41,500 nucleotides of DNA, taken from the NCBI GenBank assembly GCA_902782645.1, contig CACZNV010000034.1:1-41500 (forward strand), given 5' to 3'. The stretch's first letter is position 1. The number at the start of each line of letters is the position of its first letter. Under the pieces are notes generated by a model. That model was not told where the DNA came from. It did not search any database and saw only the letters and a program-made list of their open reading frames with translations. Positions 1 to 32,333 of this stretch are shown here, piece after piece. The position numbers and the translations under genes are program-made. The DNA is from an uncultured Ruminococcus sp. GTDB lineage: Bacteria > Bacillota > Clostridia > UBA1212.

Positions 1-2
1 AT

Positions 3-227
3 CTTGCAGTCCTTCCTGCATATAGGCATAGCGGATTTGGTAAAAGATTATTGGAGCATGCATATGAAACTGCAGGAAATCAAGGATGCAAGCTCATAAA
101 CATAGGGATTGTTGAAGAAAACATACGGCTTAGGAAATGGTATGAACAGAACGGAGCTATACATACCGGAACTAAAAAGTTTGATTTCTTTCCGTTTACA
201 TGCGGATATATGGTAAAAGAACTATAA
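3..227 (+). CDS. GNAT family N-acetyltransferase, C-terminal part (5' end outside window)
   Basis: Not in the ORF track. Frame 3 reads LAVLPAYRHSGFGKRLLEHAYETA...NIRLRKWYEQNG...GYMVKEL* with stop TAA at 225-227. V-x-P-x-Y-R-x-x-G-x-G is the GNAT acetyl-CoA-binding motif A. Confidence 0.85.
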   Translation, partial: LAVLPAYRHSGFGKRLLEHAYETAGNQGCKLINIGIVEENIRLRKWYEQNGAIHTGTKKFDFFPFTCGYMVKEL

Positions 228-244
228 GGAGTGGCTTTAAGATA

Positions 245-706
245 ATGATAAAAGTTTTATTCGTCTGCCACGGCAACATCTGCCGCAGCCCTATGGCGGA
301 GTTCTGCCTGAGAGATCTATTGGCGAGAAACAACATCGCCAATGTCTCCGTGAGTTCCGCCGCCACCAGCGCCGAGGAAATCGGCAACCCTGTCTATCCG
401 CCTGCCCGGCAGAAGCTCCGGGAGCAGGGCATTGACCCCTCCGGAAAGCGTGCGAGGCAGATATCAAGGAATGATTATGAAAAGTATGATATAATCGTTG
501 CGATGGAGCGCTACAATCTGCAGAACATGCTGAGAATCATTGGCGGTGACCCGGAGAACAAGTTCAGGCTCCTGATGGACTACACAGACACGCCGGGGGA
601 CGTTGCCGATCCGTGGTACACGGGCGATTTTGACGAGGCCTGGCGCGACATCGAAAAAGGCTGCTCGGCGATGCTCGAGCGGATTAAAACGGGCAAGCCG
701 CTCTGA
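245..706 (+). CDS. Low molecular weight protein-tyrosine phosphatase
   Basis: P-loop VCHGNICRSPMAE and DPWY general-acid motif. Start moved to ATG 245, which follows AAGGAG at 226-231. Confidence 0.93.
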   Translation: MIKVLFVCHGNICRSPMAEFCLRDLLARNNIANVSVSSAATSAEEIGNPVYPPARQKLREQGIDPSGKRARQISRNDYEKYDIIVAMERYNLQNMLRIIGGDPENKFRLLMDYTDTPGDVADPWYTGDFDEAWRDIEKGCSAMLERIKTGKPL

Positions 707-14808: not shown

Positions 14809-14831
14809 AAGGCACCTCCTCAGCAGGCTTT

Positions 14832-15680: not shown

Positions 15681-15702
15681 AATAAACTCCTTTTTCTTTT
15701 TC

Positions 15703-15731
15703 ATTTTACCCTATTAAATAGGGTTTGTCAA
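15703..15731 (-). promoter_or_regulatory. TA operon promoter with operator palindrome
   Basis: TTGACA-17 nt-TAAAAT. ACCCTATT-a-AATAGGGT (15708-15724) lies in the spacer. Confidence 0.8.
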
Positions 15732-15792: not shown

Positions 15793-16070
15793 AGACACCT
15801 TGTGTGCTTTCAGAACTATCGTTGGTTGTTATAGTTCTTTTCGCGACCTGCGTAAAGAGCCAAAACGAGCATTAAACAAAAAACGCTCAGTTTTGAGCTA
15901 TTTTTTCGCGTACGGACCCGATGATGTACGAAGGTACTTCGAGCGGTCCGTACACGAAAAGCAGGTCGCGAGTTAATTGTCGTAAGACACCTTGTGTGCT
16001 TTCAGAACTATCGTTGGTTGTTATAGTTCTTTTCGCAACTTGCGTAAAGAGCCAAAACTGAGCGTTTTTT
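15793..16070. repeat. 74-bp direct repeat pair and MITE-like unit with 18-bp terminal inverted repeats
   Basis: 15793-15866 matches 15985-16058 at 72 of 74 positions. AAAAAACGCTCAGTTTTG (15878-15895) / CAAAACTGAGCGTTTTTT (16053-16070). Internal hairpin CGTACGGACC...GGTCCGTAC. Confidence 0.8.
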
Positions 16071-16860: not shown

Positions 16861-16962
16861 ATGGAGTCTCCTGTTTGGGTTTTGTATTGGCGGCAAGGGG
16901 TAAAACTTGCCCTTCAAGTTTTTACTATTTGAAAGGTTTTTTGTCAATAGGCGCCTTACACC

Positions 16963-17011: not shown

Positions 17012-20000
17012 TCATTGAACTGTCACTCTGAACGTCACCGTGTCGTCGGGAGTCTCTGCCTCGTAGACGAATGAGTAGGAGTAGGTGCCGTCCCTGCCCA
17101 GGTGTACCGCGTAGCCGTCATACTCCTTGACGGCTGTGTTGTAGGGCGTTGCGTTGCCGTTGGCGTCAATAATTTCGATTACGGGCCTTACAAGTTTGGT
17201 GAAGCCGTCAACCCTCACCACGTTTCTGTTGCGGCCGCCTGTGACCGTGAACTCAGCCTCGTTGTCTTCGCAGAGAACTCTCGCGAGGTAGGGCTCGTCA
17301 AGGGCGGTGCCCTTCTTTACATTGGCGACTGTGAGGGGCTTCAGAACTGAATCCTCAAATACCAGGCGTATGTTCTCGTCGGAAGTGAGATCACGGTTTG
17401 CCCAGGGGAGCATCAGGAATTCGATGTAGATGTAGTCGCCCTTCTTGAAGGTGGTCTTGCCAAGGTCAAGGGAAAGAGCGGAGAAGTTCAGATCGCCGCC
17501 AAAGCTGTCCCGGAGGATCAGGTTGCCTTCCCACTTCTTGCCGCCAATGACTATATCGGTGTCCTTGATGATCACCGCGTAGTTCATCGGGTCATCCTCG
17601 CCCTCCACCTGCTCCGGAACGGGCTTGTTGCTGTGGTAGTATGCGTACCAGCTCTGCTTGCCGTGGAGTGTGTAGTAGGTCACGCCCCTTGTGGTGGTCT
17701 TGAGGTCAACGTGCTGCCTGTTGCCGTCGGGATCCCTGTAACTGAGTTCTGCAAAATACTGGTTTCTGCTGTCCTGAGAGACTATCGAGAACTGCTTCTT
17801 CACATCGTTAATCGTCAAATCCTTGAGGAATGTGAGCTTTATGACGGAATAGGTTCTGTTCTCGTCCGTCTGAGGGAACTCACTGTGGCGTATCGTGTAT
17901 TTGAAGGCGCCGCCGTCGTCAATGTAGGAATACTCAAGGTCTGCGTACGAAGGACCCGAGCTGTTGATTTTGGAGCCCGTGTACTCGTTCATGATGAGCT
18001 TGTTGCTGTTGTCCCTGTAGGAAACAGCTTTCGACGTGGCAACCGACGTGAACTGCGGGTCTGTGTTCCATCTGATTCCGCTGTGTCCTCTGAAGTCGGG
18101 GAGCAGGAATCCGTCTTTTCCGAATACGCCGTAGAAGCTGATGCAGTTCGACTCGCTGCAGCCTGTGGAGAGGTGGTAGTAGGAGACGAAGAACTGGATT
18201 GACGAGAGCTGCTTAATCTGGAAAATACCCCAGTTGACGTAGAGGTGAACATCCGAGAATGTGACGCTGCTGCCTGATTTAATTGAAATCGGGAATATCG
18301 AGTTTCCGTAGGAGACATCCTCGGGGTCGTATACCTTTTCCTCTTTCTCGCAGTCGAAGTTCTTGCAGACCTGCATCGGAATAGGTACCTGCATCTGGTC
18401 CTCGTCAAGAAGGACGGCGCACTCCAGGGTTCCGGGGTATGTTTTCACGCACATGTAGATATTTCTGTCGTTGTAGTCTGAATCGACGGTTATATTTGAA
18501 ATGAAGTAGTCGTTTCTGCGGCCCTCCTTGAAAACCGTAGGCCAGACAGTTCCGTTGACGGACGTGCAGTAGTAGCCCTTAATCGGGTCATAGCCAATGA
18601 TTTTGGCGCCGTTTGAGCCCGGATTTACCGTGAAATTCTCAGCAGGCACCGGGTTGCGCTCCTTCCATGCCACATCGTCAAGGGCATTGAGGTTGCCGTC
18701 TTTGTTGGTGTAGATTCTGTGGCCGAAAATGCAGTCCTTGCCCGCCTTCAGGTTAAGATTACCGCTTGCGACCTGTTTGACAACATATTTTCCGTTCTCA
18801 AGAGTCACGCTGGTCTTGAGGGTCGAGCCGTCGTCGGGAATGATGATTGCAATAACGCCTGCGTCTTTTACCTTGAAGGCGACGTACTGCACCGTGTCGG
18901 GGTCGATATCCGTGTCGTCATGGGCGCCGGCCAGGTCGCGAATCTTGATTGCCTCAACCTTGTCCTTCGGCATCTCCCAGATCATACCGAACTCGCTGAC
19001 CGCCTCGTAGTTCTGCCTTGCCAGCAGTCTGAAGCTCTGGTGGAGCTTGTCGGGGTAAACGTCAAGGGTTCTCTCGCCAAGCGCTGCGATGCACTCGCCA
19101 ATGGTAACCGCCTTGATGCCCGTAACCGTGTATTTTTCTCCGGAAATCTTTCCTGCGTCGATTCTGACGCCTGTGAGATCGTCCTTAAGAAGGCCCGAAA
19201 TGTCCAGCACATAGGTGTGGGGCTTGCCGTCGCAGGCCAGTTCAAAGTCCAGCATCTGTTCGGCATTGAAGTTTCCGGTCTTTTTGTCGCAGATGAAAAG
19301 CTGTGTTCTGCCCGCAGAGCCCTCCGCCGCAATGGTCAACGCAATGTGTGTGGCCTTTTCACGTGGAACAGGCGTCTCCAGGTACCTGGCAATGTAGGGA
19401 TCGAGGCCCTCCGTGAGCTCCATGGTCACGGATTTGCCCTTTTCGTAGGTCGCTTTGCAGTGGCTTGAAGCCAGCCAGTCGTTGTCGAAAACAGAGAGCG
19501 AGGTCTCGTCGGCGAAGGCGAAGCTGCCGTTTTCCTTGGTTCCGAAGCCCTGATCTCTCATAAAAACTTCGTAATAGTAGTAGCCCAGCCTGGTGGTGTT
19601 GATTCGTCCCACCGTTGTCGAGTAGTTGTCCTGCCAGACCTTGCCGTTTTTGTCAACGACATACGAATTCATCGTGTTGGTCAGGTATGTGCCTCCGCAG
19701 ATCTCGCTGATGCTCTCAATTCCCATCTTTCCGTCGGTGTCAAGGGTCTCCACAATCCTGATCTGCTTGTTCAGAACCTCATATTTGGCTCTTCCAGTTC
19801 CGTTGATATACCTTGCCTGAACACCATTGGCGACTTGATTCGCGTACAAAATGGAATCGGCAAGCTTAGAATCGTTTGAAATATCTCTCATCTCAACAGG
19901 CTCCTCCGTAGGTTCAATGATTGGGATATCCGTTCCGCCTGAGGAGTTATTCGTGCACCCGGAAAATAAACTGACAACCGCCAATGCCACAAGCAGCAGC

Positions 20001-20041
20001 GCCGCAACACCGCATGCACCTTTTCTAACAAACCTTTTCAT
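17012..20041 (-). CDS. Large lipoprotein of unknown function with CBM-like internal domain
   Basis: Signal peptide with lipobox FSG-C. Internal DPYI...QLF...DGKPHTYVLDI...VRID. Beta-rich 1009-aa ORF with AGGAGG RBS. Confidence 0.7.
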   Translation of the reverse strand: MKRFVRKGACGVAALLLVALAVVSLFSGCTNNSSGGTDIPIIEPTEEPVEMRDISNDSKLADSILYANQVANGVQARYINGTGRAKYEVLNKQIRIVETLDTDGKMGIESISEICGGTYLTNTMNSYVVDKNGKVWQDNYSTTVGRINTTRLGYYYYEVFMRDQGFGTKENGSFAFADETSLSVFDNDWLASSHCKATYEKGKSVTMELTEGLDPYIARYLETPVPREKATHIALTIAAEGSAGRTQLFICDKKTGNFNAEQMLDFELACDGKPHTYVLDISGLLKDDLTGVRIDAGKISGEKYTVTGIKAVTIGECIAALGERTLDVYPDKLHQSFRLLARQNYEAVSEFGMIWEMPKDKVEAIKIRDLAGAHDDTDIDPDTVQYVAFKVKDAGVIAIIIPDDGSTLKTSVTLENGKYVVKQVASGNLNLKAGKDCIFGHRIYTNKDGNLNALDDVAWKERNPVPAENFTVNPGSNGAKIIGYDPIKGYYCTSVNGTVWPTVFKEGRRNDYFISNITVDSDYNDRNIYMCVKTYPGTLECAVLLDEDQMQVPIPMQVCKNFDCEKEEKVYDPEDVSYGNSIFPISIKSGSSVTFSDVHLYVNWGIFQIKQLSSIQFFVSYYHLSTGCSESNCISFYGVFGKDGFLLPDFRGHSGIRWNTDPQFTSVATSKAVSYRDNSNKLIMNEYTGSKINSSGPSYADLEYSYIDDGGAFKYTIRHSEFPQTDENRTYSVIKLTFLKDLTINDVKKQFSIVSQDSRNQYFAELSYRDPDGNRQHVDLKTTTRGVTYYTLHGKQSWYAYYHSNKPVPEQVEGEDDPMNYAVIIKDTDIVIGGKKWEGNLILRDSFGGDLNFSALSLDLGKTTFKKGDYIYIEFLMLPWANRDLTSDENIRLVFEDSVLKPLTVANVKKGTALDEPYLARVLCEDNEAEFTVTGGRNRNVVRVDGFTKLVRPVIEIIDANGNATPYNTAVKEYDGYAVHLGRDGTYSYSFVYEAETPDDTVTFRVTVQ

Positions 20042-22111: not shown

Positions 22112-22687
22112 TTATATCGGCCATATCTCCCTGTCAAATATATTATTGGCGTTTTGAACATCCGCATTGTTATATCCGATTCGCCAAAGTGCTTTAGCAT
22201 ATTTTCTGGGCAAATCGATATCTCCGTCCCGTATCATTATCACAACATCTCTGATACGGAGGCATCTGATATCAGTCCTCCCATTATTCAGTTTTTCATC
22301 AATAATGTTCTGAAGCCTGGATTCATCCGTTGCAAAAATAGGAATACCGGTAACTTTTGCAAAGGCCAGCGAACAGGTTTCTCCTTTGTTTTTGTTGGGA
22401 TTATTCGGATTAATCATGACCTCTTCTAGCAGACGATATGTCATATCGTATACAGCTCTGTCAGAAGGATTAAGAACGGTTTGATCGACTATTTTGATAA
22501 TTCCCGATGCCGCCAAGGCAGAGAGCTGCTTTCTTGCGCTGGCAGGATACAGCACCTCTCCATAGGCATGTGTATGCATATAAATATCTGAAGCTATTAG
22601 AGGAAGCACTTTAAATAAAAAATCATATTTATCGCTTCCGCCGAGCTTTACACAGAAATCAGCATCGACAATTATTTTTTCCAGCAT
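22112..22687 (-). CDS. PIN-like domain protein
   Basis: IIVDAD...E...GETCSLAFA...FATDE matches the PIN acidic pattern (DUF3368-like GE..A...TDE). Confidence 0.6.
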   Translation of the reverse strand: MLEKIIVDADFCVKLGGSDKYDFLFKVLPLIASDIYMHTHAYGEVLYPASARKQLSALAASGIIKIVDQTVLNPSDRAVYDMTYRLLEEVMINPNNPNKNKGETCSLAFAKVTGIPIFATDESRLQNIIDEKLNNGRTDIRCLRIRDVVIMIRDGDIDLPRKYAKALWRIGYNNADVQNANNIFDREIWPI

Positions 22688-22689
22688 TC

Positions 22690-23523
22690 TTAGCCCTCCA
22701 TGATTTCATCGAGTTCACCATCTGACGGAAATGCATTTCTCGCAGAATCAGGAATACCAACATCTGGCGGACATAATCTGCTGAATGAAAGCAGATATTC
22801 AAGCTTTTCAAAAGTTATGCGTTTATTTTCATAAGCTTCAACAGCCAGTTCTGTGAGATTGTCTATTGCAATTCGCTCATCGGCCGACGGCGCAACGATG
22901 GCATATCTGTTTCTTGCAGCGGCAATCTCCTCATCGGTTATGCTGAGATACTTGTTCCTGTCTGCTTTTGAAATAACGTTTACCTCATAGAGGCGCTTTA
23001 CCATTGTTCGGAAAGGAACTAAAAATACATTGGCGAGTTTGAGAACATCTTTAATGTCGATTTTTGCTGTGTCTATAGAGTTGAGATGAAGCTCCCTAAG
23101 GAGAAGCTCCTCCTCAACAAGAAACTCCGCGGCAAAACGATTTGCCTTGAGCTCATTTCTGTCCTCAACAGGCTCACTTATAATGTTCGCAGGTATCACA
23201 TCCGCTTTTTCATCATAGCGAATATGGTAAAGCTCATGCGCCGCAGCAAACACCTGACAGTCCAACGGAACAGAGGAATTGATGGCAACAAAAGGTTTGC
23301 CCTCTTGATTCCCCTGCGTTGAACCTTTGATTCTTGTAAATCCCCACACTGCGTCTCCACCCAGCGGATAATATATAACGCGTGCATAACGGCCGAGAAT
23401 CGAGAATATCTGGCGTCCTATAATATCATTTTGCTTTTTGCATACGCCAAGCATCTCTGCCGCTTTTTCCTTTACCTTTGAAATTTCGGCTTCGGTTAAT
23501 TCCGGAATCTTTTTATCAGTCAC
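22690..23523 (-). CDS. ImmA/IrrE family metallo-endopeptidase
   Basis: FAAAHELYH...ELKANRFAAEFL. GTG start at 23523 follows GGAGGAG. Confidence 0.9.
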   Translation of the reverse strand: MTDKKIPELTEAEISKVKEKAAEMLGVCKKQNDIIGRQIFSILGRYARVIYYPLGGDAVWGFTRIKGSTQGNQEGKPFVAINSSVPLDCQVFAAAHELYHIRYDEKADVIPANIISEPVEDRNELKANRFAAEFLVEEELLLRELHLNSIDTAKIDIKDVLKLANVFLVPFRTMVKRLYEVNVISKADRNKYLSITDEEIAAARNRYAIVAPSADERIAIDNLTELAVEAYENKRITFEKLEYLLSFSRLCPPDVGIPDSARNAFPSDGELDEIMEG

Positions 23524-23860
23524 AGGCAAGCTCCTCCAACAATTGAATCTCATCGATAGCAGTTTGAATCAGTTCAACCTTCTCTCTGGTCTTTTCATCC
23601 TTTATGGTCCCCATAAAAGCCATGCTGTCGATAGTATAGTTATCCATGTTCGTCGTAAGAAGAGCATCGGTGGTCGTTCCAAGAACATCTGCTATTCTTT
23701 TAAGCTCGCCGACATTGATTGCCTTAGCACCCTTGATGATTTTACTCATCACTTGTTTCGAGACAGACAAAGCATCGGCTAGACTCTGTTGAGTCATAGC
23801 ATTCCTTTTCAGTTCTTTTTGTATATTTGCCCCAACCTGAGCAAAATTCATTGCATACAT
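23516..23860 (-). CDS. XRE family transcriptional regulator
   Basis: MTQQSLADALSVSKQVMSKII HTH. ATG 23860 follows GGAGG. Confidence 0.9.
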   Translation of the reverse strand: MYAMNFAQVGANIQKELKRNAMTQQSLADALSVSKQVMSKIIKGAKAINVGELKRIADVLGTTTDALLTTNMDNYTIDSMAFMGTIKDEKTREKVELIQTAIDEIQLLEELACD

Positions 23861-23895
23861 GAAAGTAACCTCCGTTCGTTTTCCTTTCATCGCCA

Positions 23896-23937
23896 ATTAT
23901 ATCAAAGGCGCCGCCCGTTTGTCAACGTTTTGTTGAC
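23896..23937 (-). promoter_or_regulatory. Promoter with palindrome overlapping the -35
   Basis: TTGACA-18 nt-TATAAT with TGn extension. GTCAAC-N5-GTTGAC at 23921-23937. Confidence 0.65.
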
Positions 23938-24038: not shown

Positions 24039-24084
24039 AAAAAAACAGCTGCAACTCTCAAACCTGATCAAGCCGCAGCTGTTT
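24039..24084 (-). terminator. Putative terminator after the giant pilin-like gene
   Basis: AAACAGCTGC/GCAGCTGTTT arms around a 22-nt loop, followed by a T-run on the minus strand. Confidence 0.45.
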
Positions 24085-24141: not shown

Positions 24142-27100
24142 CTACTCGGTAAACCCGCCGTACCTCTCAATCAGGTACGCAAGGTAGTCCTCGGTCAGTA
24201 TGCCCTTCCCCAAAGCCACCTTGAGGTACTGTCCGTTGTAGGCGTTGAACATTATCTCCGTGACGCCAATTACTTCCATCTCTTCAGCAGTGAAGAGTCC
24301 GTAGGTTGCGATGTCTTCATTCTTTGATGCCTGATTGTACTTGAGGTCATCATCATAGTCAAAGATGTTGAAGAGGCCTGTAATACCGCCGGGCATGGAA
24401 AGCATACCCTCAGTGAAATAGTTCAGGGTCGAGTATGTTACAGGCGAGTAGACAGCCATCGTCTCGTAGGTAAGGAACGCACTGTCGAGAGTGTAAACTC
24501 CTTCAATTCCGTAGAAACGGTGCCCCACAAAGTCTGCATAGTTCTCTGCGTCGATGTAAACATACTTGTTGAGATTCAAATCAAAGAATCCGTGCTCACT
24601 GATGACCTTCACTCGCTTGCCGTTGCTGAAATCGAGGTTGATAACCTCACACTGCTGTTCTTCCTCAACATCGTTGAAGAGAACGAATGAAGTCTCAACT
24701 TCTCCTGTTTCGTGGTTGAAAACAAGGAGTTCGTCCCCGGAAACCACATATTGGACCTGCTTCTCAGTGCCGTCAGCCATGAGGATGAGCGTGTCGGGGG
24801 CAAGGCAGCTTTTAGAAGAAGAATTAATAGTAACGTCACCGTCAGGCATTTTGAAATAGTATGTTCCCGCAGCAGCTGAAGTTGTCGTCGAAGTGCATGC
24901 TTCATTGCTGTAGAGAGTTACACTTGAACTGCTCTTTTTAACAGTGAATGTCTTTGATTCGGATTCTGAATAAGACAGCACAACCTTAACGACACTATTG
25001 TATGGAACAGAGCCGCCACTGTTCACAGCTGTTCCATTCACAGTTACTGCTGTAGTACTGTTGCTTGTTATAATCGTTATCTTGTATGATTTCACAGTCC
25101 ACTGTGCGTACAAAGTTACATCTCCGGTCGGGGTATATGCTGCGCCGCCGTTGCCGATTTTGGTTCCGCCGCTTGCTGCAGTATACCAGCCGTTAAATGT
25201 ATAACCTGTTCGCGTTGGCGTCGGCAAAGTAACACTTCCGTTAGTACCTGCAGTCAAAGCAGACGGATTGGAAGCTCCGTTGCCGTCAAATGATACCTTA
25301 TATGCAGTCCATTGTGCATAGAGAGTGATGTTTTCGGCAGGAGTATATGATGTGCCGGCGTTTCCGACTTTTGTTCCGCCGCTCGCCGCAGTATACCAGC
25401 CATTGAACGAATGTCCCGCCCAGGTTGCATCCGGCAAAGTAATAGGCGTTTCACCATCATACGTCGCACTACTTGTTCCGCAGGATCCGCCGTTAGCATT
25501 AAATGTGACCGGTATATTTGTCGACCACTGCGCGTAGAGAGTGACGTTTGCAGTTGGAGTATAGTTAGCTCCCGAGGTGCCAACCTTCTCGCCGCCGCTT
25601 GCAGCCGTAAACCAACCTTCGAATGTGGGCTGAGATCCCGGAGTTGCGGTAGGGAGTATAATCGCAGTGCCCTCGTATGTAGCGGCCTCGATATTGCACG
25701 TTCCCCCGTTTGTCATATCAAACGTGACAGTGTATTTGGGAGACCAGTGGGCTGTCAATGTGATGTTTCTTTCAGGCACCGTGTAGCTGTCGCCGCCCCT
25801 TCCGACTTTTGTCTCACCGTCATACCAGCCTTCCAACCATTGCGTTGTTTGCGTTGAAGCAGGCAAAGTAATCGTGTTGCCTGAATCGCTCTTTATTGAG
25901 GATGAAGATGTACCGCCGTTTGCATCGAACGAAACTATGTACGGCTCCTTCCAGTGAGCATACAAGGTTTCAGAAGCAGATGGCTTATACCCATCAGTTC
26001 TCTTTGTTCCACCGGTTGCTGCAGTATACCATCCGTCAAATAAATAACCCGGCCTCGTAGGAGTCGGCAGTGAGACGGTGGTGGCTGATGAAGTGGTGTA
26101 CCCTACAGACTGTCCGCACTTACCGCCGTTGGGATCAAACGTAATCGTATATTTAATAGACGGCGAAAATGAAGTGGTTGGCTTTGTTTCGGTTGACGGC
26201 TTCGTATATGTTCCATTATATAATCCACAGGAAACAACATACTTTTCATCACTTGTCACCTGTTTACCGCTGTGGCCCGTAAACTTGTAATCGTATATTC
26301 TATACGAACATGCAAACGTTCTACCGCTCATGGCAGAGCTAACCCCGGAACTACCCGCAGGAGAATTAGTAACATAGAATAGAGACGTTTTCGATGAATC
26401 GATATTCAAATTTACCTTTTTTGTGCCCCCTGGAGAATTAGAACATCCAGTTCTTACCATCGACAAAGTCAATATTCTGCCGTCGTTAAGGGTAATTGTT
26501 ACTGTGGTCGCTGTGTTATAATTCGTAGAACCGCCCAGCAGGTCTCCCGAAGGGCTTACCGAAACGATTTTGGCAACAAAATTCTTTTTGCTGGTTGAAT
26601 TACTGCCGTCCAATACAACTGTCGGATTACCGTCTTTATCGAAGTCCGTAATCGTAAGACCGTCAAATATATCGAACCAATAGTATCTGTCTCCGCTGCC
26701 GTTTATTTTCACACCTGTTGTGTTTACCGCAGTATCCACGGTTATCTCCGCATCTTTCCATGCGCGGTCCGGAGTTAACACTTCAACAGGGACAGTAACA
26801 GTATATGATGTTTTACCTATAGGTGAACCGTTTAAGCCAAAAACAGTTGCATTCGATACATTGATTACGATGCCGGTAGAGCCGGAGTTTTCGAATGTAA
26901 TAGTATTTCCATTTATTGTTGTGCCTTCGCAAGAAAGAGAAACACTCTCCGAATCTCCCGAATACCTGCCGAAACGAATGTACTCATTGACATTAAAATC
27001 ATAGGAAGATCCCAAAGGAAACTGTATTCTTACAGTTCCGTTGTCGTTCCAGCAATGCGTTTCATCATCAGGTAGCGTAGTCGGCAAACCTTCAATTTTG

Positions 27101-30003
27101 CATACAGGCACATACAAACCGTTACTGCTTGAGCTGTACATATAACTTGAATCTTTAAGTTCGACTGATCCGGAATCTGCAGACAAAGAATAAACCTGAC
27201 CATCGCCAATCCCGGTAGATATAGTGCCCAATGTATAACCGTGATTCTCCCGATTATCCGTAATCGTCGCTAAAGCACCGTTTAAATACAGTACACCCAT
27301 ATTTACATATGATTTGCCATTGTAAGAGTGTACATATCCATTTTGTTTGAGTGCATGGTTGGCTATCGTGCTTGCTACTTTTGAGCTGTCAATTGCCTCT
27401 GCATCAGCAGAACAGATCCAGTTGTATTGATTAAAATAACCGTCTATTATCAATCTCGGATTGGATTCGCTCTCCTCGGTTCCGACTAAAACACCAAAGC
27501 CTTCAACATCATTTCCAACCTCAAACTCATCTTTTGAAAGATATTGGATAGTGGTTACATCCTCCAAAGTTATAGTGTAGTCACTAGAACTCTTGATATG
27601 TACATTTGTGAGCGATCCTCTGTCGCAAACTGTGTTTTTTATCGTGACGTTGCCGGAATTTACAAGAATATTATTTCTTGCCCCTTTTATGTAACAGTTT
27701 GATATGGTACTGTCGCCTGAAATGGCAACGGCCGAGTACTGATAAGCATAATATTTTTTCTCTCCGTTCGTTTCAACCAAGTTTCCGCTTTCAGTAACAT
27801 AGTAGTCCCAGCCGCCTGTGGCATATAAATAGGCTTTCGGAAAAACTTTGCAATCCAGAATCACGTTGTCAAGGGTCCCTCCGCTTGTGATTTGAATGAA
27901 ACCTGAGTTTAATCCTCCGGTATTTAGAGATCGCCCGTCGCTTCTGTTCGTTATTTTAAAACCGTTTCCGTAAAAAGAATAACCGTTCGAAATGTTAATC
28001 GAGCTGTTGCCTGTGCTGATGTCGCACAAAAGACAGACATTTCTGTCAGTGGCGTTCATAGCGCCCGTGGCATTGTAGGCATCCACAACCTCAAGGTATA
28101 GGTCAACCGAATCGGCTGCAGACATTTTAACAACGCCTGTACCGTTGAAGGTGACTTTTTTATCTTGGCTGATTGAGCCGTTGGCGGTGCCGAAAATATT
28201 GGTTACCGTAAAGTTGGTATCGTTGCTGTAGCCTGTGAAGAAATAGGAAATAGCAACTCCGCCGCCCTGATTTCCGACCCTGTATAAATACTTGTCGGTA
28301 TGAGGGAAGACAACGCTGATTGAATGAGCGCCGCAGACTGTGCAGGGGTTTCCTATGTGTCCGGTTGCAAGGACACGCGCACTCTCATAACTGTCGCCGC
28401 ATCTTGAGCATGTGCACATGGTATACCCCTGCTCCGTGCATGTCGGTTCGGTGACTGACTCTTCATAGTTGTGCCCAAGGGCCTCAAGGACCTCTTCTGA
28501 AGGGCTTTCGCTTGCAAATCCAACCTCGTGGTGGGTCAGAGTTGCAGTGTATCTTCTTAATCCGGTCTCGGTGCAGGTTGGCTCGGTGGTTACAACAGAT
28601 GAAATATACCCGCTTATGTCGGGGATAATCACGGTTTCGACGCGGTTGCAGTCAGCGTCGGTGCATTCAAATCTTGCCGAGGCAGATTCGTAACCGTCCC
28701 AAAGCCAAACCGGATCGCCGAAGGAGTGGTCGTGAGACCTTATAATCGTCGTTTCGCCGTCCTCGTTTCTTATGCAAATATAGACTCTTTCTGCAATTTC
28801 GAGTAATTCGGGGCTGTCTGCATTAAGCGTCTCTGAAATCCTATACTCATAGGCGCTGCAACGGGTGCATACCTTAACCGAAGAACCGGCAATCGTAATA
28901 AAGTCGTGGCCGTCGCCGCAAACTGATTCCGATCCCGGGGCTGTGCTGTCGTTCTTTCCCTTGGTTTCTCCGATACCTGTAACTAATACCTTCTTGGAAT
29001 TTGTGTTTGTCACATCACAATCATGTGTATTTGCATAATACGGCTGTGATTGAAGTTTTACGGTTAACTCGCCGCCATCGGTGTTGGCCTCAAAGTAAAC
29101 CGTTGTTACTTTGGAACCGCCGTAAATTTCAACATTGTGGCTTAAATTGGTGTTTTTAACTGTGCCCTGTATGGACCCGCTCTTCAGGTCTACACGCACG
29201 TTGCCTTCGGTTGCGCTTGCGTTGAGGACAGATACTATAGATCCTTTTTCCTGAGCATAGTGTCCTTTTCGCACTTCAACCGCCAATGCGGCTCCGTGCT
29301 CATGAAATGAATCGTCGGCGCAGTATACGACCTGATTGCCGGAATCTCCATAGTGGTGGATTATGTCTCCTTTTTTTGAGTTGGAGGAATTGACAAAGCC
29401 GGTGAACTTGCAGTTTGTTCCGTTGTCGTTTGTACGGATAATGACCCTTTGCCCCGTGCTCGCTTCCGATCTGTCATACGTTAAGTTCCTGACATAATGG
29501 TTTGTGCCTGCATCAAATCCGACTGCAATCGAGACATCGGCGTCCCTGGCCTCGTCGCTGAGGTAAATGGAATAACTCTGCTCCTCAAGGGGAGGAACAG
29601 AGTCATATATCACGAAGTACTCGTATTTATTGGCGATAACACCTTTGTCATCGCCGGATTCAGGCTTGGGGTATTCGATTTTATCGCTTTTTGTGTTGAT
29701 GTAGACAAACCTGTCGTTTATGCTGTCCCATGCGATAACACGGTCTTCAAGTTCGCAGTTCTTGATCAAGTTGAGCTTGAATCCGCTGCTGACAACAGAC
29801 GACACCGCATCATACATTGTGGCATGTCTTCCGTCGTCAAGCGATAAAGTGTTATTCAGGCTGCGGACCAGTTGAGTGTCATTCGACTCCTTTGTCCTGT
29901 TGTTAAAGTAAGAAAACATAGGTACCATAACCGCAGCAAGTATACCTAAAACTGCGAGTACGATAATCAATTCTATAATTGTAAACCCGTGTTTCCTTTT
30001 CAT
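24142..30003 (-). CDS. Giant prepilin-type protein (1953 aa) with five Listeria-Bacteroides (InlB-B/Flg_new) repeats and a C-terminal Hint domain
   Basis: MKRKHG|FTIIELIIVLAVLGIL class III signal. EPTCTExG Cys/His repeats. Five F-D/N-x-N-G...GW...LYAQW repeats. S|CLAPDTLILMADG...ISEH...NYFTEGMLSM Hint domain. ATG 30003 follows GGAGG. Confidence 0.88.
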   Translation of the reverse strand: MKRKHGFTIIELIIVLAVLGILAAVMVPMFSYFNNRTKESNDTQLVRSLNNTLSLDDGRHATMYDAVSSVVSSGFKLNLIKNCELEDRVIAWDSINDRFVYINTKSDKIEYPKPESGDDKGVIANKYEYFVIYDSVPPLEEQSYSIYLSDEARDADVSIAVGFDAGTNHYVRNLTYDRSEASTGQRVIIRTNDNGTNCKFTGFVNSSNSKKGDIIHHYGDSGNQVVYCADDSFHEHGAALAVEVRKGHYAQEKGSIVSVLNASATEGNVRVDLKSGSIQGTVKNTNLSHNVEIYGGSKVTTVYFEANTDGGELTVKLQSQPYYANTHDCDVTNTNSKKVLVTGIGETKGKNDSTAPGSESVCGDGHDFITIAGSSVKVCTRCSAYEYRISETLNADSPELLEIAERVYICIRNEDGETTIIRSHDHSFGDPVWLWDGYESASARFECTDADCNRVETVIIPDISGYISSVVTTEPTCTETGLRRYTATLTHHEVGFASESPSEEVLEALGHNYEESVTEPTCTEQGYTMCTCSRCGDSYESARVLATGHIGNPCTVCGAHSISVVFPHTDKYLYRVGNQGGGVAISYFFTGYSNDTNFTVTNIFGTANGSISQDKKVTFNGTGVVKMSAADSVDLYLEVVDAYNATGAMNATDRNVCLLCDISTGNSSINISNGYSFYGNGFKITNRSDGRSLNTGGLNSGFIQITSGGTLDNVILDCKVFPKAYLYATGGWDYYVTESGNLVETNGEKKYYAYQYSAVAISGDSTISNCYIKGARNNILVNSGNVTIKNTVCDRGSLTNVHIKSSSDYTITLEDVTTIQYLSKDEFEVGNDVEGFGVLVGTEESESNPRLIIDGYFNQYNWICSADAEAIDSSKVASTIANHALKQNGYVHSYNGKSYVNMGVLYLNGALATITDNRENHGYTLGTISTGIGDGQVYSLSADSGSVELKDSSYMYSSSSNGLYVPVCKIEGLPTTLPDDETHCWNDNGTVRIQFPLGSSYDFNVNEYIRFGRYSGDSESVSLSCEGTTINGNTITFENSGSTGIVINVSNATVFGLNGSPIGKTSYTVTVPVEVLTPDRAWKDAEITVDTAVNTTGVKINGSGDRYYWFDIFDGLTITDFDKDGNPTVVLDGSNSTSKKNFVAKIVSVSPSGDLLGGSTNYNTATTVTITLNDGRILTLSMVRTGCSNSPGGTKKVNLNIDSSKTSLFYVTNSPAGSSGVSSAMSGRTFACSYRIYDYKFTGHSGKQVTSDEKYVVSCGLYNGTYTKPSTETKPTTSFSPSIKYTITFDPNGGKCGQSVGYTTSSATTVSLPTPTRPGYLFDGWYTAATGGTKRTDGYKPSASETLYAHWKEPYIVSFDANGGTSSSSIKSDSGNTITLPASTQTTQWLEGWYDGETKVGRGGDSYTVPERNITLTAHWSPKYTVTFDMTNGGTCNIEAATYEGTAIILPTATPGSQPTFEGWFTAASGGEKVGTSGANYTPTANVTLYAQWSTNIPVTFNANGGSCGTSSATYDGETPITLPDATWAGHSFNGWYTAASGGTKVGNAGTSYTPAENITLYAQWTAYKVSFDGNGASNPSALTAGTNGSVTLPTPTRTGYTFNGWYTAASGGTKIGNGGAAYTPTGDVTLYAQWTVKSYKITIITSNSTTAVTVNGTAVNSGGSVPYNSVVKVVLSYSESESKTFTVKKSSSSVTLYSNEACTSTTTSAAAGTYYFKMPDGDVTINSSSKSCLAPDTLILMADGTEKQVQYVVSGDELLVFNHETGEVETSFVLFNDVEEEQQCEVINLDFSNGKRVKVISEHGFFDLNLNKYVYIDAENYADFVGHRFYGIEGVYTLDSAFLTYETMAVYSPVTYSTLNYFTEGMLSMPGGITGLFNIFDYDDDLKYNQASKNEDIATYGLFTAEEMEVIGVTEIMFNAYNGQYLKVALGKGILTEDYLAYLIERYGGFTE
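25096..26154 (-). repeat. Five tandem ~70-aa Listeria-Bacteroides repeats (coding)
   Basis: Recurring YT(I/V)TF-x-x-NGG, LP, GWYTAASGGTK and TLYAQW. Confidence 0.88.
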
Positions 30004-30049
30004 TGTGGTTTCCTCCGGCAAGTAATAGTCTTAAAATTTTTTCCCGATC

Positions 30050-31993
30050 TCACTTTACAGGAGCTTCAAGCACATAAGAGATGGTTCCGCATTCAACCTT
30101 GTTGCCGGTTTCAACGCCGTTTTCATCTGTTTCGTAGATAAAGAGTCTAACTGTGATGGTTTTGCCTGTGTTGGCTTCAGACAGGTTGGAAACACCGCAG
30201 GTGAACGTCTTCACATAACCGCATATTGCGGCAAAGTTCATGTGAAGGTCTTCATTGGCGTGTCCGATGAGGTTCTCTGCATACTTGTAAGCCGTGTCAA
30301 GAAGTCTTACCGACTGGCCCGCCTTCAAAGTCACGGGAGTTCCTGTTTCTTCCATATCTGACAGTCCGAAGCCAAACCATGCGCCGTTCCAGAAGTTATC
30401 CGCAAATGTGGAGTAGTGACCGCCAAGAGCAACAGTTCCGACTTCAATGTCGCCGTCAAAAGATACCTCGTAGTCCACAAGCCATGTGAAATACTCGCGT
30501 CTTACTTTCAGGAGTTCTTCAACTCTTGCTGCGGCATCATCGCCGTAGAGGTTCTTTACAACGTTGAGCGCCTTGGCGATTTTCTCTTCATTGGCGTAGT
30601 CTTCGATATGGTCGGTGAAAATCGGCTCTCCGTCTTCTGTAGCTGCTATGAAGGCATCGATGATTGTCCTGTCTTCGGGAGCAAACGCATTAAATGTGGC
30701 AGCCCTTTGGAGAGTTGCAATCTTGGCGATGTTGTCGTTGAAGTACAGGCTGAACTGTATGCCGTCCACATCCGGAACATCGGTGACGTACGCCTTTATG
30801 TTTTTGATGACGTCCACTGTCTTCTTGGTTTCGTCTATTGTTTTAACCTTGCTGTCGGCAACACGGGAGAAAACGGTCGCATCGGGAATGTCCTCCTGCG
30901 CCTGGGCTCTGCCCTCTCCGGAGAGCGCCTCCACGATGAGAAGGCTAAGGTCGGTAACCTTGAAGCCAAGTACTTCCTCTTTTACATCGCTTGCGGCGTA
31001 CAGATAAATATTCTCTACTTTTTCGGCATTATCGCCAATGGCATCAACATTTGTCTGGACTATCGCAACAAGCTTTTTGCCTTCTGTGGGAATCGAAACT
31101 CTCTCTCTTGTGACGATTAAAGGCAGCTTGGTTCCGTTCTGAGTCGCAAGAATAATCTGATTGTAGTTGTCGTCGGTTGCCACGAGATAAATAGCTTCGA
31201 CCATGGCTCCGTCGTCAGCTGTTATAACGAGACGGCCGTTGGCGATGTCAAGCAGCAGTACCGTGCCGTGCTCGAAATATGAGTTGGGGCTGACTGATAT
31301 CAAACTGACATATTTTGCGGCTCCGTAGTGATCAATCTTATCATTGGGAGCCGTAACAGCCAAATCTCCGCCGTTGGTGCGGACAATTGCGTCCTTGGCG
31401 ACAGTGTTTTCATACTTGACCAGCCCTATGGACACCGTCTTTCCCACATCCACGCCTGTTGAAGCCAGCACTGTGTCAACCCCTTTGGGCGTTGCTGCAA
31501 GGTAGCAGGACCAGTCCATGCCCTTCATGCCGCAGGTAAGAGTGGTAACTCCGTTGGCGTCTGTTTTGAAGGCGTCGTCCATGTTCTTTGATGTGATAAT
31601 ACGCCAATACTTATGGGAGCCTTTATCCAGCCTTACGGAAATGTTGGTCTCAGGTATGTATTTGACCGTGTTTTCTTTTCCTTCGTAATAGCAGAAAACA
31701 TCGTTTGCGATGTCGTAAAGGATCTCATTGCCGACTTCCGATGCGTTGATCTTGGAAACATCGTATCCGAATGCCTCTGCAGCAGCAAGAGCGTCTGTCA
31801 TCGTATTGTGAGCTCTTGTATCGGCCCTGAGGGATTTGTTAAGGTTCCGGATCAACTCCGAATCGTTGCCTATGCGGTCTTTTTTCAGGAGTGATGCAAT
31901 GAATGGAATGAGTATTGCTGCGAGAACAGCAATGACGACCATTACTACAACCAATTCCACAACGGTAAAACCTTTACGTGTCCGTCTATTCAT
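30050..31993 (-). CDS. Large prepilin-type protein (647 aa), N-terminal paralog of the downstream giant protein
   Basis: MNRRTRKG|FTVVELVVVMVVIAVLAAILIP. ATG 31993 follows GGGAGG. Confidence 0.88.
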   Translation of the reverse strand: MNRRTRKGFTVVELVVVMVVIAVLAAILIPFIASLLKKDRIGNDSELIRNLNKSLRADTRAHNTMTDALAAAEAFGYDVSKINASEVGNEILYDIANDVFCYYEGKENTVKYIPETNISVRLDKGSHKYWRIITSKNMDDAFKTDANGVTTLTCGMKGMDWSCYLAATPKGVDTVLASTGVDVGKTVSIGLVKYENTVAKDAIVRTNGGDLAVTAPNDKIDHYGAAKYVSLISVSPNSYFEHGTVLLLDIANGRLVITADDGAMVEAIYLVATDDNYNQIILATQNGTKLPLIVTRERVSIPTEGKKLVAIVQTNVDAIGDNAEKVENIYLYAASDVKEEVLGFKVTDLSLLIVEALSGEGRAQAQEDIPDATVFSRVADSKVKTIDETKKTVDVIKNIKAYVTDVPDVDGIQFSLYFNDNIAKIATLQRAATFNAFAPEDRTIIDAFIAATEDGEPIFTDHIEDYANEEKIAKALNVVKNLYGDDAAARVEELLKVRREYFTWLVDYEVSFDGDIEVGTVALGGHYSTFADNFWNGAWFGFGLSDMEETGTPVTLKAGQSVRLLDTAYKYAENLIGHANEDLHMNFAAICGYVKTFTCGVSNLSEANTGKTITVRLFIYETDENGVETGNKVECGTISYVLEAPVK

Positions 31994-32333
31994 AGTAAAC
32001 CTCCCATAAAGCACTCTCATTTCTCATTGTTGTTTTATAATTGCCGCCAAGGCTTTTTTCATATGCTCCGCCGCAATTTTCATAAACAAATCAAAGGAAG
32101 TAGCTGATGCTTATTCAGTTCGGCGATTAATGTTTTTAATGCGCCTGTCGGTGATAAAGACGTCCGCCCCGTTATTTAGGACGAACCTGTTCCATAAGAC
32201 AAAAATGCCATGTTAACGAATTATAACGGGTGTTAGGTAACAAATAAGCCACAAAATAAAAATAAACCTTCTTTATCGTAAATAAAAATAAAGTTTCTAC
32301 CCTTCAAAAGCCTTTTTTTAGTTTTTCCCCTTC

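Follow-up and report, generated by a model that had tools for sequence, protein, structure and literature searches.

A Hint domain with a conserved C-terminal tail in a giant prepilin-type protein: a putative portable autoprocessing cassette of gut bacterial surface proteins

Three chemistries are known for Hint domains: protein splicing, ligation of cholesterol to Hedgehog, and cleavage or conjugation of the BIL type. A-type BIL domains end in a terminal His-Asn. In Hedgehog the active-site Asp (D46) serves as general base, and it is dispensable for thioester formation or hydrolysis. The PT-HINT domains (PF07591), found towards the C-terminal end of large proteins that bacteria secrete, are thought to release the part adjacent to them. 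Two systems set a precedent for ligation to a nucleophile other than water. The Hedgehog Hint-SRR unit is described as transferring cholesterol, with an SRR that associates with membranes (PMC7906309), and the Tetrahymena BUBL domain BIL2, one of the non-mobile Hint domains of secreted or variable proteins, is described as conjugating its N-extein to lysine amines (PMC8616854). Burglin in 2008 set apart by description a proteobacterial and myxobacterial subgroup of secreted proteins that end in a Hog-sized Hint-like region and are neither intein, Hog nor BIL; the taxa given are Stigmatella, Myxococcus, Photorhabdus, Serratia and Yersinia (PMC2362128). A comparable arrangement is that of MAIN, the microbial GAIN, presented as an autoproteolytic module of gut and soil bacteria that separates large ectodomains, adhesive or enzymatic, from an element at the C-terminus (bioRxiv 10.64898/2026.05.12.724683).

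The window analysed here is 41,500 nucleotides of a contig (CACZNV010000034.1) from an uncultured Ruminococcus sp. It carries a gene for a giant surface protein that ends in a Hint domain plus a tail. The gene and its surroundings have these features:

30050..32020, minus strand: neighbouring upstream gene, encoding another prepilin-type protein (656 aa; N_methyl, E 3.6e-6)
24142..30003, minus strand: complete gene, from its ATG at 30003 to the TAG at 24144-24142, for the giant surface protein (1953 aa, prepilin-type)
29908..30003, minus strand: class III (prepilin-type) signal, MKRKHG/FTIIELII plus hydrophobic helix (PF07963, TIGR02532)
24877..25923, minus strand: Listeria-Bacteroides (Flg_new / InlB B-repeat) repeats, the final passenger region before the cassette (PF09479, PF18998)
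24039..24084, minus strand: intrinsic terminator, a hairpin with a U7 run after it, some 60 nt past the stop (folding versus shuffles)

The open reading frame was listed as 24142-30021 (minus strand), starting at an upstream in-frame TTG at 30021. A GGAGGA box (30016-30011) lies 7 nt 5' of the ATG at 30003, and this ATG gives 1953 aa and the same residue numbering as a sequence-only reading made earlier on this DNA. The N-terminus, MKRKHG/FTIIELIIVLAVLGILAAV, has the G/F-x-x-x-E motif and hydrophobic helix of type IV pilins and pseudopilins. It matches N_methyl (PF07963, E 3e-7) and TIGR02532 (26.5 bits, cut-off 16.3), as well as PilA, GspG and ComG N-terminal models. The host genome has two above-cut-off matches to prepilin peptidase PF01478, on contigs C119 and C177, and a PilB-type ATPase (PF00437, E 1.4e-139) on C119, 2 kb from the prepilin peptidase; the pilin-type surface protein proposed in the sequence-only reading is thus upheld. 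All published modular pilins of which we know are far below 1953 aa. The Flg_new repeats form five stretches (PF09479, E 5.5e-63), joined by one divergent Flg_new_2 match (PF18998, E 0.0026, P0001 residues 1367-1428).

The pair formed by the prepilin gene and the Hint-bearing gene is kept in two genomes of the same genus, where the counterparts of the upstream gene (L093 8378-10465 and L094 4935-6911) both have an N_methyl match and immediately precede the Hint-bearing gene. At the other end, the terminator hairpin (-32.1 kcal/mol, z -5.2) is equalled in folding by none of 200 shuffles, although a simple terminator scan limited to loops of 3-8 nt overlooked it; its presence makes the adhesin gene the last of its transcription unit. 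Positions 24142-27000 of the window match, in whole or in part, 20 listed entries, mostly gut-metagenome contigs, and two other runs (sheep gut and gut metagenomes) contain at least half of the sampled words. No RNA dataset is among those matching this segment.

The C-terminal region is divided as follows:

24808..24822, minus strand: Ser-rich linker SSSKS up to the predicted scissile bond between Ser1732 and Cys1733 (sequence reading)
24394..24807, minus strand: Hint domain, Cys1733-Met1870, with nucleophile Cys1733, Asp1778, block-B Glu1803-His1804 and Ser1869 (AF2, Foldseek, VIA, HMMER, conservation)
24334..24393, minus strand: most conserved segment of the cassette, the PGGIxGLFNIFEYD...Y linker (mean entropy 1.05 bits)
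24145..24333, minus strand: helical part of the tail, five helices, with D-I-x-x-Y-G-L, Y...K-G and R-Y motifs (AF2 models)

Cys1733 (codon 24807-24805; residue 22 of the C-terminal query and model, P0002) follows a linker ending NSSSKS and opens CLAPDTLILMADG (block A). The motif ISEH contains the block-B His1804, the Hint end reads VYSPVT...NYFTEGMLSM with Pro1871 as the next residue, and an 83-residue tail (P1871-E1953) runs to the TAG stop. All of these elements had been pointed out in the sequence-only reading, and all are present.

An AlphaFold (AF2) model of the 242-aa C-terminus has a pLDDT of 91.0 and a pTM of 0.84. Its top Foldseek matches are BIL2 (6y75, E 3.4e-9), DnaB mini-inteins, the Clostridium thermocellum A-type BIL (2lwy; TMt 0.85, 22% identity) and Hedgehog (1at0/6tyy). 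There are 64 PDB matches at E<=1e-3, and among the matches listed at E<=1e-4, 46 of 46 belong to inteins, BIL or Hedgehog. By VIA, 50 entries superpose on model residues 22-160 with Z 13.8-19.3, the values for Tetrahymena BIL2, C. thermocellum BIL, mini-inteins and Hedgehog being 17.4-19.3 (17.4-17.5 for the last). The closest solved structures are BIL2 (6Y75/6TMM) and the C. thermocellum BIL (2LWY), at Foldseek E 3e-9 to 4e-8 and VIA Z 19.3 and 18.4. BIL2 is also the sole PDB family that the family profile reaches over the whole Hint domain (E 1e-3; 1at0 at E 0.044). In Pfam the best-matching family is PF01079 (Hedgehog/Hog), found in 16 of 43 relatives at E<=1e-3; here it matches at E 2.2e-5, its 24.6 bits lying below the gathering cut-off of 29.7 and covering only model positions 8-84 of 213. 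In the ESM Atlas the whole cassette is nearest to unnamed Bacillota clusters (0.96), then to Hint, Vint and Hedgehog clusters. The predicted structure thus confirms the C-terminal region as a genuine Hint fold, which is the outcome of the HMM and Foldseek comparison that the sequence-only reading had proposed as a check.

Conservation of catalytic residues was counted over 152 modules. Cys1 is kept in 151, the block-B His in all 152 and the Glu before it in 148, whereas the Thr of the block-B TxxH is replaced, by Ile in 100 and by Val in 43; the Ile/Val in place of Thr and the nearly invariant Glu set the cassette apart from Hedgehog. Ser precedes Cys1 in 60 modules, Gly in 36 and Asn in 12. 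Between Cys1 and the block-B His (Hh 1-72) the Hedgehog alignment has no gaps, and it pairs Asp1778 with the active-site Asp of HhC, D46 (Drosophila D303). The Asp1778 column holds D in 124 and E in 24 modules, 148 of 152 together; BIL2, in contrast, has Lys at this position. The human counterpart of D303, D243, is named among the Hint active-site residues (PMC7906309).

Could such a domain splice? The last intein residue superposes in VIA on model residue 160, the Mtu RecA intein (1..440), gp41-1 (-1..125) and NpuDnaE (-1..137) each spanning model 20/22..160, and the equivalents in the cassette are Met1870-Pro1871. The profile alignment to BIL2 stops at ...GlLS. After the Hint fold comes P-G-G (Pro 150/152, Gly 147/152 and 140/152), and a conserved tail follows rather than a resumed host protein, so that no C-extein begins with Cys, Ser or Thr at +1. 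With LSM-P where inteins have His-Asn, no terminal Asn and no +1 nucleophile, splicing is not possible; the lack of His-Asn read from the sequence earlier is substantiated by the superposition. BIL domains differ on the same point. The PDB entries of BIL2 carry the double mutation C1A-N143A, implying a terminal Asn, whereas Met-Pro at the corresponding position of the cassette leaves no equivalent C-terminal cleavage. Furthermore, the solved BIL chains (138-156 residues) end with the Hint fold and have no counterpart of the tail.

The layout is that of Hedgehog/Hog (PF01079; 1AT0, 6TYY): an N-terminal passenger, a small residue and then Cys, a Hint domain of about 140 aa (model residues 22-159) without His-Asn, and a helical C-terminal accessory region of about 80 aa, here 83. 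The model and the alignment bear out this Hedgehog-like arrangement, as the sequence-only reading had it. The likeness is one of layout only, as homology between tail and SRR was not detected. The cassette also differs from Hedgehog in being bacterial and in matching PF01079 below the cut-off and over its N-terminal half only.

The tail is as conserved as the Hint domain (mean column entropy 1.50 versus 1.60 bits, against 3.41 upstream of Cys1), and the conservation boundary sits exactly at Cys1. Its linker, model positions 160-179, averages 1.05 bits, and 8 of its 20 columns reach at least 90%; Asn1879, eight residues past the Hint fold, is invariant (152/152), and Gly1872, Gly1873 and Gly1876 are conserved. 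Such conservation argues that the tail is functional and no mere spacer. With a median net charge of -8.5 it is acidic, and no part of it resembles a membrane segment, the maximal 19-aa hydropathy being 0.83 in the median and 1.47 at the highest. In charge and hydropathy it is thus unlike the membrane-associating, sterol-recognising region of Hedgehog, to which it has no detectable similarity, and no sterol link is suggested.

A model of the tail alone has a pLDDT of 84. Foldseek against the PDB found no match to it at E<=1e-3 (best E 8.3), and the best VIA Z against 48,161 representative chains is 2.3, which does not in itself prove a novel fold. In the ESM Atlas the tail alone scores at most 0.90, with few shared features. 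No consistent Pfam family was found among 60 tails; EF-hand_6 in four (best E 0.0048) and PMBR in three (best E 0.036) were treated as noise. The tail profile matches 334 proteins of 42-149 aa at E<=1e-5, and all 14 inspected begin at the equivalent of Met1870 (MPGG...), two residues earlier (MLSMPGG...) or within the Hint domain. From these start positions the short proteins are read as pieces left by broken or truncated gene calls rather than as free-standing tails. A prediction of a two-copy complex of the cassette gave no verdict (0.00 against a mark of 0.42, its own controls not being folded) and speaks neither for nor against self-association.

The cassette is widespread among proteins. 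With the 242-aa C-terminus as query, 2761 cluster representatives match at E<=1e-3, 1181 of them at E<=1e-30, which together with the confident Hint model places the Hint-plus-tail combination far above chance. At least 2761 representatives of 50%-identity clusters, almost entirely from uncultured gut and rumen Firmicutes, have Hint and tail joined at their C-terminus. Among the best 150 of the 2761, which were examined in detail, the cassette lies within 26 residues of the protein end in 139. These relatives are 216 to 4931 aa long, with mutually unrelated passengers and varied N-terminal signals (prepilin, SipW-type, hydrophobic); a hydrophobic N-terminus that may be a cleavable signal peptide is present in 69. 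As only five of the 150 have a prepilin leader, the cassette is general and not pilin-specific. Two points of the sequence-only reading are corrected by this survey. The search for the tail in other Hint proteins, which that reading had called for, reveals not an appendage of one adhesin but a conserved domain that always travels with the cassette Hint subfamily, and the cassette is not tied to pilin-type proteins. Its observation is confirmed, and its interpretation as a whole partly supported.

Across genomes the distribution is patchy, with at least 199 carriers. The cassette was found in none of 400 other genomes sampled evenly across the phylum (E<=1e-10), absence from incomplete MAGs not being proof, and in 4 of 45 other genomes of the order, including 3 of 7 of the genus. 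Of five carrier genomes tested, three have PBP, FtsW/RodA and Mur ligase. The other two, G446 with one cassette copy and G450 with three, have no PBP transpeptidase, no FtsW/RodA and only weak Mur_ligase_M matches (E 4e-11 to 7e-7), their completeness not being given. None of 80 cassette loci falls in the taxa of the Burglin subgroup. No conserved partner gene was found when the ORFs of these 80 loci were clustered by BLAST, the commonest neighbour family occurring at 12 of 80 and the next at 9.

How might the cassette work? We propose that the last 221 residues, Cys1733-Glu1953 (24145-24807, minus strand), form an autonomous and portable autoprocessing cassette, a non-splicing Hint domain with an obligate 83-residue tail, in which the tail and Asp1778 most likely position a nucleophile other than water. 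The model, alignments and conservation lead us to give this reading a probability of roughly 0.45. The prepilin-type protein would be exported and the cassette would fold outside the cell. Cys1733, aided by His1804 and Glu1803, would attack the Ser1732 carbonyl in an N-to-S acyl shift and form a thioester. A nucleophile would resolve the thioester, leaving a mature protein that ends at Ser1732 and a freed Hint-tail part of 25 kDa. Such self-cleavage between Ser1732 and Cys1733 is quite probable. The further step, speculative and drawn by analogy, is transfer to a non-water nucleophile selected by the tail, whereby the new C-terminus of the passenger would be ligated as in Hedgehog cholesterolysis or BIL2 isopeptide formation. 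The acidity and solubility of the tail and the presence of the cassette in apparently wall-less bacteria favour a soluble, glycan or protein acceptor over a membrane lipid or peptidoglycan.

There are counterpoints. A selector role for the tail is an argument from layout and conservation, since no resemblance of the tail to the Hedgehog SRR, to Pfam families or to PDB entries was detected. No candidate acceptor was found in the survey of loci. Moreover, the host protein and many carriers are already anchored N-terminally, which would leave a C-terminal ligation without obvious purpose.

A rival explanation is a C-terminal pro-domain that removes itself. Here the thioester would only be hydrolysed; the tail would serve folding, export competence or the timing of cleavage, as an intramolecular chaperone or cap, and would be discarded with nothing ligated. 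The catalytic evidence is identical to that for ligation, and plain hydrolysis fits all the sequence data equally, save for the strength of tail conservation. The 80 loci yielded no acceptor or partner gene, and prepilin, SipW-type or hydrophobic N-termini make a C-terminal anchor needless. As passengers the relatives carry long fibres, built of repeats or beta-helix-like; phage tailspikes, which are fibres of this type, use auto-cleaved C-terminal chaperones and may offer a parallel. The tail and its linker, however, match or exceed the Hint domain in conservation, with an invariant Asn1879, which is beyond what is usual for a disposable cap. The acidic residue aligned with the Hedgehog Asp is likewise retained in nearly all modules, although in Hedgehog it is not needed for the thioester or for hydrolysis. 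On this balance the pro-domain is a serious but somewhat unlikely explanation.

Another explanation is a shedding switch, the tail holding the protein on the surface non-covalently until Hint cleavage frees the passenger. The order of passenger, autoproteolytic domain and small C-terminal domain resembles that described for MAIN (bioRxiv 10.64898/2026.05.12.724683), and the 69 relatives with a possible cleavable signal peptide would otherwise be unanchored. MAIN is unrelated in fold and chemistry, its products stay associated and it forms no thioester. Against shedding, the strongly acidic tail has no hydrophobic segment and matches no wall-binding family, PMBR being weak in three of the 60 tails, the cassette also occurs in genomes without detectable peptidoglycan machinery, and the host protein is anchored through its pilin N-terminus. 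A shedding switch is improbable.

Attachment to lipid or cell wall as a general role is argued against. A lipid acceptor is weakened by the acidic tail with no membrane-like stretch, so unlike the Hedgehog sterol-recognition region, and a cell-wall acceptor by the two of five carrier genomes without peptidoglycan machinery. In sortase-independent wall anchoring, the thioester would be attacked by an amine left free on lipid II or on a peptidoglycan stem peptide. The cassette does occupy the place of LPXTG signals, and the chemistry is feasible, as a thioester and an amine give an amide in the sortase acyl-enzyme. Yet G446 and G450, whose completeness is not given, are without PBP, FtsW/RodA and a strong Mur ligase, and the host genome encodes a sortase; this reading is disfavoured as a general mechanism and is very improbable. 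A role of the cassette as a replacement for sortase was dropped, as the host genome has a sortase of its own.

To the same low degree we credit a catalytically dead Hint domain that would sit at the adhesin tip for structure or binding only. The sub-threshold Pfam score and the missing block-B Thr speak for it; the retention of Cys1 (151/152) and of the block-B His (152/152), and a conservation boundary placed exactly at Cys1, speak against it. Hardly credible is a pre-toxin Hint from which the tail would be released to act as a small effector or toxin, for although Hint domains reportedly precede C-terminal toxins in polymorphic toxin systems and PT-HINT PF07591 matches weakly in 3 of 43 relatives, variable toxins with linked immunity genes are replaced here by one highly conserved acidic tail, no conserved immunity-like gene lies downstream in 80 loci (no neighbour family exceeds 12 of 80), and the Hint C-terminus has no Asn to free the tail.

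The autoprocessing cassette with a nucleophile-positioning tail is the preferred reading. No description of a Hint-plus-tail cassette was found in the main texts of the openly accessible literature, in agreement with the sequence-only reading, which did not recognise the architecture as characterised. Current annotation names the carriers by their repeats only, one named relative being an 'InlB B-repeat-containing protein'.

A bolder and rather unlikely extension is that the cassette arms surface fibres with a ligation warhead that needs neither ATP nor sortase. The C-terminus of the passenger would become a thioester, and the tail would present a specific hydroxyl or amine, from a plant-fibre or mucus glycan or from a lysine belonging to a partner or an adjacent subunit. 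If this were true, the adhesin would be covalently fixed to its target or polymerised, and a pilus-borne adhesin would be welded to what it binds. It would represent a bacterial counterpart of Hedgehog cholesterolysis and of the ubiquitin-like conjugation by BIL2, limited to those anaerobic habitats of the gut in which a thiol outside the cell survives.

The Hint-plus-tail proteins constitute a very large fourth group of Hint domains, at least 2761 clusters at 50% identity, with a Hedgehog-like layout and a strongly conserved accessory domain without known fold. The host protein, being pilin-type, further raises the idea of modular pilins that are giant and process themselves. If the tail selects the nucleophile, the cassette would provide a new enzyme-free means of attaching or cross-linking bacterial surface proteins, and a ready tool for C-terminal protein ligation. 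If it only removes itself, it would still represent an unrecognised maturation step for thousands of gut-microbiome adhesins.

The giant adhesin ends in a cassette consisting of a Hint domain (Cys1733-Met1870) and an 83-residue tail (P1871-E1953). The features of its locus are as follows.

24142-30021, minus strand: long adhesin ORF, cassette encoded at its 3' end
About 60 nt past the adhesin stop: terminator-like hairpin with U7 (-32.1 kcal/mol, z -5.2, 0 of 200 shuffles as stable)
30050-32020, minus strand: second prepilin-type protein, 656 aa, directly upstream of the adhesin gene, N_methyl only
32420-34558, minus strand: Cthe_2159 carbohydrate-binding protein, preceding the 656-aa prepilin-type gene
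22112-23896, minus strand: HTH_3 repressor-like gene, Peptidase_M78 (ImmA/IrrE-type) gene and 191-aa ORF with no assigned family, separating the adhesin gene from tgt
23925-23896, minus strand: sigma-70 promoter match, 12/12

Because a GGAGGA box (30016-30011) lies 7 nt 5' of an ATG at 30003, that ATG is taken as the start. The resulting protein has 1953 aa and the N-terminus MKRKHG/FTIIELIIVLAVLGILAAV, in agreement with the numbering of the sequence-only reading; the Cys1733 codon is 24807-24805, residue 22 of P0002, the 242-aa C-terminus used as query and model. The elements which that reading reported are all present, i.e. the NSSSKS/C linker, CLAPDTLILMADG, ISEH, VYSPVT...NYFTEGMLSM and, after LSM, an 83-aa tail that ends in YLIERYGGFTE before the stop. 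The strong hairpin with its U7 run marks the gene as the end of its transcription unit. No RNA runs carrying the adhesin gene were found.

Is the N-terminal part of the cassette a Hint domain, as had been proposed? From sequence models alone the identity is marginal. Pfam PF01079 matched at E 2.2e-5 and 24.6 bits, below its 29.7-bit cut-off and over the N-terminal half only; Intein_splicing, Hom_end_hint and Vint gave only traces in the adhesin C-terminus; and in the PDB phmmer matched nothing but Drosophila Hedgehog (E 0.56). A profile built from 50 modules (A2) reached BIL2 over the full Hint domain at E 1e-3, and 1at0 at E 0.044. The proposed HMM and Foldseek check is decided by predicted structure. 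The AlphaFold2 model (43 sequences, pLDDT 91.0, pTM 0.84) consists of a beta domain (model residues 22-160), an extended linker (160-179) and five helices (180-240). Foldseek gave 64 PDB matches at E<=1e-3; the 46 listed at E<=1e-4 all belong to the inteins, the BIL domains or Hedgehog, with Tetrahymena BIL2 6y75 (E 3.4e-9), Ssp DnaB mini-inteins, C. thermocellum BIL 2lwy (22% identity, TMt 0.85) and Hedgehog 1at0/6tyy at the top. VIA-align scored BIL2, mini-inteins, 2lwy and Hedgehog at Z 19.3 to 17.4 over model residues 22-160. As modelled, this part of the cassette is a Hint fold.

The intein terminal residue superposes on model residue 160 (Mtu RecA intein 1..440, gp41-1 -1..125, NpuDnaE -1..137), so that Met1870-Pro1871, followed by Gly-Gly, occupy the His-Asn positions. 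The claim that His-Asn is missing was thus right, and no +1 nucleophile follows the end of the Hint fold; a terminal Asn and a +1 nucleophile define inteins and A-type BILs. In an alignment of 152 modules (the query and, from the best 150 relatives, 151 copies), Cys1 is kept in 151, the block-B His in all and the Glu before it in 148, with Ile or Val in place of the usual block-B Thr. The residue preceding Cys1 is Ser in 60, Gly in 36 and Asn in 12. HMMER alignments to Hedgehog run without gaps between Cys1 and the block-B His, and pair Asp1778 with Drosophila D303 (D46 of HhC), a column in which 124 of the 152 modules have Asp and 24 have Glu, and BIL2 has Lys. The Hedgehog active-site Asp serves as general base for cholesterol attack. 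Its human counterpart, D243, is grouped with C198, T267 and H270 in an account of the Hint active site (PMC7906309).

Judged by its layout and by the active-site Asp alignment, the cassette would work most like the Hedgehog 'Hog' domain; its nearest solved relatives by sequence and structure scores are BIL domains. It does not reach the PF01079 gathering score, its tail does not have the traits that define a sterol-type SRR, and the cassette does not have those of PT-HINT toxin cassettes. Another C-terminal bacterial Hint-like subgroup has been noted in proteobacteria and myxobacteria (Burglin, 2008; PMC2362128). Full-text literature searches found no description of the cassette, consistent with the earlier remark that the architecture was not recognised as characterised.

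An HMMER scan of the 242-aa C-terminus against 1.84 billion cluster representatives matched 2761 proteins at E<=1e-3, 1181 of them at E<=1e-30, and the search for the tail in other Hint proteins thereby found tail and Hint matched together. In the best 150 of the 2761 relatives, which are 216-4931 aa long, the match nearly always spans query residues ~18 to ~240, and the cassette lies <=26 residues from the protein end in 139. A tail private to the adhesin is ruled out, as it travels with Hint in these 150. The exceptions are eleven relatives with 49-110 mainly low-complexity residues beyond the tail, and P0086 (3496 aa), in which two divergent internal copies are followed by a transmembrane region. 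The P0086 copies (residues 333-552 and 1781-1990) have LSAPTD and LSVPDD in place of LSMPGG and retain the invariant Asn; more passenger sequence follows each, and the C-terminal end consists of transmembrane helices. A self-cutting polyprotein is one possible reading of P0086.

Hint columns have a mean entropy of 1.60 bits, against 1.50 in the tail and 1.05 in the PGGIxGLFNIFEYD linker, whose Asn1879 never varies (152/152). Entropy rises to 3.41 bits directly upstream of Cys1, which places the start of the conserved unit exactly at the predicted scissile bond. What is the tail? No consistent Pfam family was found in 60 tails (weak EF-hand_6 in 4, weak PMBR in 3), and the tail-only model (pLDDT 84) gave nothing better than E 8.3 by Foldseek against the PDB and a top VIA Z of 2.3 against 48,161 representative chains. 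Median net charge is -8.5 for the tail and -14.5 for the Hint domain, and the tail has no membrane-like stretch.

Short proteins of 42-149 aa, 334 in all (P0161-P0280 among the matches listed), also match the tail; many have 83-91 aa and start precisely with the LSMPGG motif's conserved Met. Several are found repeatedly on long contigs, one on 28 with the longest at 171 kb. All 14 inspected begin at that Met, two residues earlier or within Hint. Judged by sequence, the 334 are probably fragments of gene calls or broken genes.

Carrier proteins are diverse. Among 43 scanned sequences (the query cassette and 42 shorter relatives), Flg_new was found in 10, BspA-type LRR in 2 and subtilase in 1, and the others showed no Pfam family beyond the cassette; the only named relative is annotated 'InlB B-repeat-containing protein'. 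By simple motif rules, N-termini of the best 150 relatives are prepilin-type in 5, SipW/TasA-type in 6, a hydrophobic segment followed by x[SA][ST]W in 31, otherwise hydrophobic in 69 and without a hydrophobic start, many fragment-like, in 39; the cassette is therefore not pilin-specific. The SipW/TasA-type group has an ...AWFTD leader. In the x[SA][ST]W group (within P0006-P0148) the hydrophobic segment recurrently ends in a G-F-S-S-W-V-I-like sequence that was not matched to any known signal class.

Distribution of the cassette is patchy. Gut and rumen MAGs supplied the 80 genome loci (out of 199 stretches confirmed). Represented among them are Clostridia (Oscillospiraceae, Christensenellaceae, Acutalibacteraceae, others) as well as Bacilli (Erysipelotrichaceae, Acholeplasmatales, 'Mollicutes'), the closest locus being a Mageeibacillus sp. 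UBA1243 MAG at 95% identity. The cassette occurs once in the window's own genome, in 4 of 45 other genomes of the order, including 3 of 7 of the genus, and in none of 400 others sampled across the phylum.

In the present host the pilin-type claim is supported by the adhesin N-terminus (PF07963, E 3e-7; TIGR02532, 26.5 bits vs 16.3). The genome has two prepilin peptidases, one with a PilB-type ATPase 2 kb away. The gene pair, a ~660-695-aa prepilin protein and then the giant Hint-tail prepilin protein, recurs in two same-genus genomes (L093, L094) and, from sequence, resembles a conserved pair of genes for giant modular pilin-like proteins. Cys-rich motifs (T-E-P-T-C-T-E-x-G / C-x-x-C) recur at passenger residues ~470-560 (28350-28620, minus strand), and a long beta-helix-looking stretch (NVILDC..., ISNCYIKGARNNILVNSGNVTIKN) comes after them; Pfam gave no family over either region. 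In L094 tgt directly follows the adhesin gene, so that 22112-23896 looks like an insertion.

Elsewhere, a low-GC island at ~4000-14000 (GC 0.34-0.35, one 2-kb window 0.46; rest of the window 0.42-0.55) could have been acquired as a peptide-modification or defence cluster, and overlapping RelE-like and HTH_3 ORFs form a probable toxin-antitoxin pair.

4389-6194 and 6354-7793, island: two large ORFs without a family
8041-8940, island: NTP_transf_5 nucleotidyltransferase
8945-9811, island: nSTAND3-like ORF
9829-11625, island: ABC ATPase/permease
11878-13296, island: radical SAM protein
14023-15000 and 16069-16947: two ZIP zinc-transporter genes flanking the RelE-like/HTH_3 pair
15007-15704, minus strand: overlapping RelE-like (PF06296) and HTH_3 ORFs
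17012-20041 (minus), 36167-38434 (plus) and 38456-39694 (plus): ORFs of 1009, 755 and 412 aa, no Pfam family at E<=1e-3 (1009-aa ORF, weak EAD10 only, E 0.034)

The intact N-terminal catalytic set and established Hint chemistry argue for self-cleavage at Ser1732-Cys1733, with a probability of roughly 0.8. How would the thioester then be resolved? Directed transfer to a non-water nucleophile is speculative: the Hedgehog-like layout, the acidic residue kept at the position aligned with the Hedgehog active-site Asp and a linker and tail that are very strongly conserved favour it, as do Hint ligations to cholesterol in Hedgehog (PMC7906309) and to lysine in BIL2 (PMC8616854, section 2.4), but no acceptor was found, and clustering of neighbouring ORFs at the 80 loci gave no common partner gene (top family 12/80). 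Peptidoglycan is unlikely as a general acceptor on carrier-genome gene content. PBP transpeptidase, FtsW/RodA and Mur_ligase_M are all present in three of five carrier genomes, but the other two, MAGs whose completeness is not given, lack PBP transpeptidase and FtsW/RodA and have only weak Mur_ligase_M matches (G446, Acholeplasmatales-labelled, one cassette copy; G450, Bacilli-labelled, three copies); the window's own genome also retains a sortase. A membrane lipid is unlikely as a general acceptor, as the tail is acidic and soluble. The sequence-only reading, an autoprocessing pilin-type protein that may couple its C-terminus to lipid, glycan or protein, thus stands for the host and for a Hint without His-Asn, and not for membrane lipid as general acceptor; the remaining candidates to resolve the thioester are water and a nucleophile that is soluble, a glycan or a protein. 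The cassette is a probable Hint autoprocessing domain joined to a new, obligate accessory domain.
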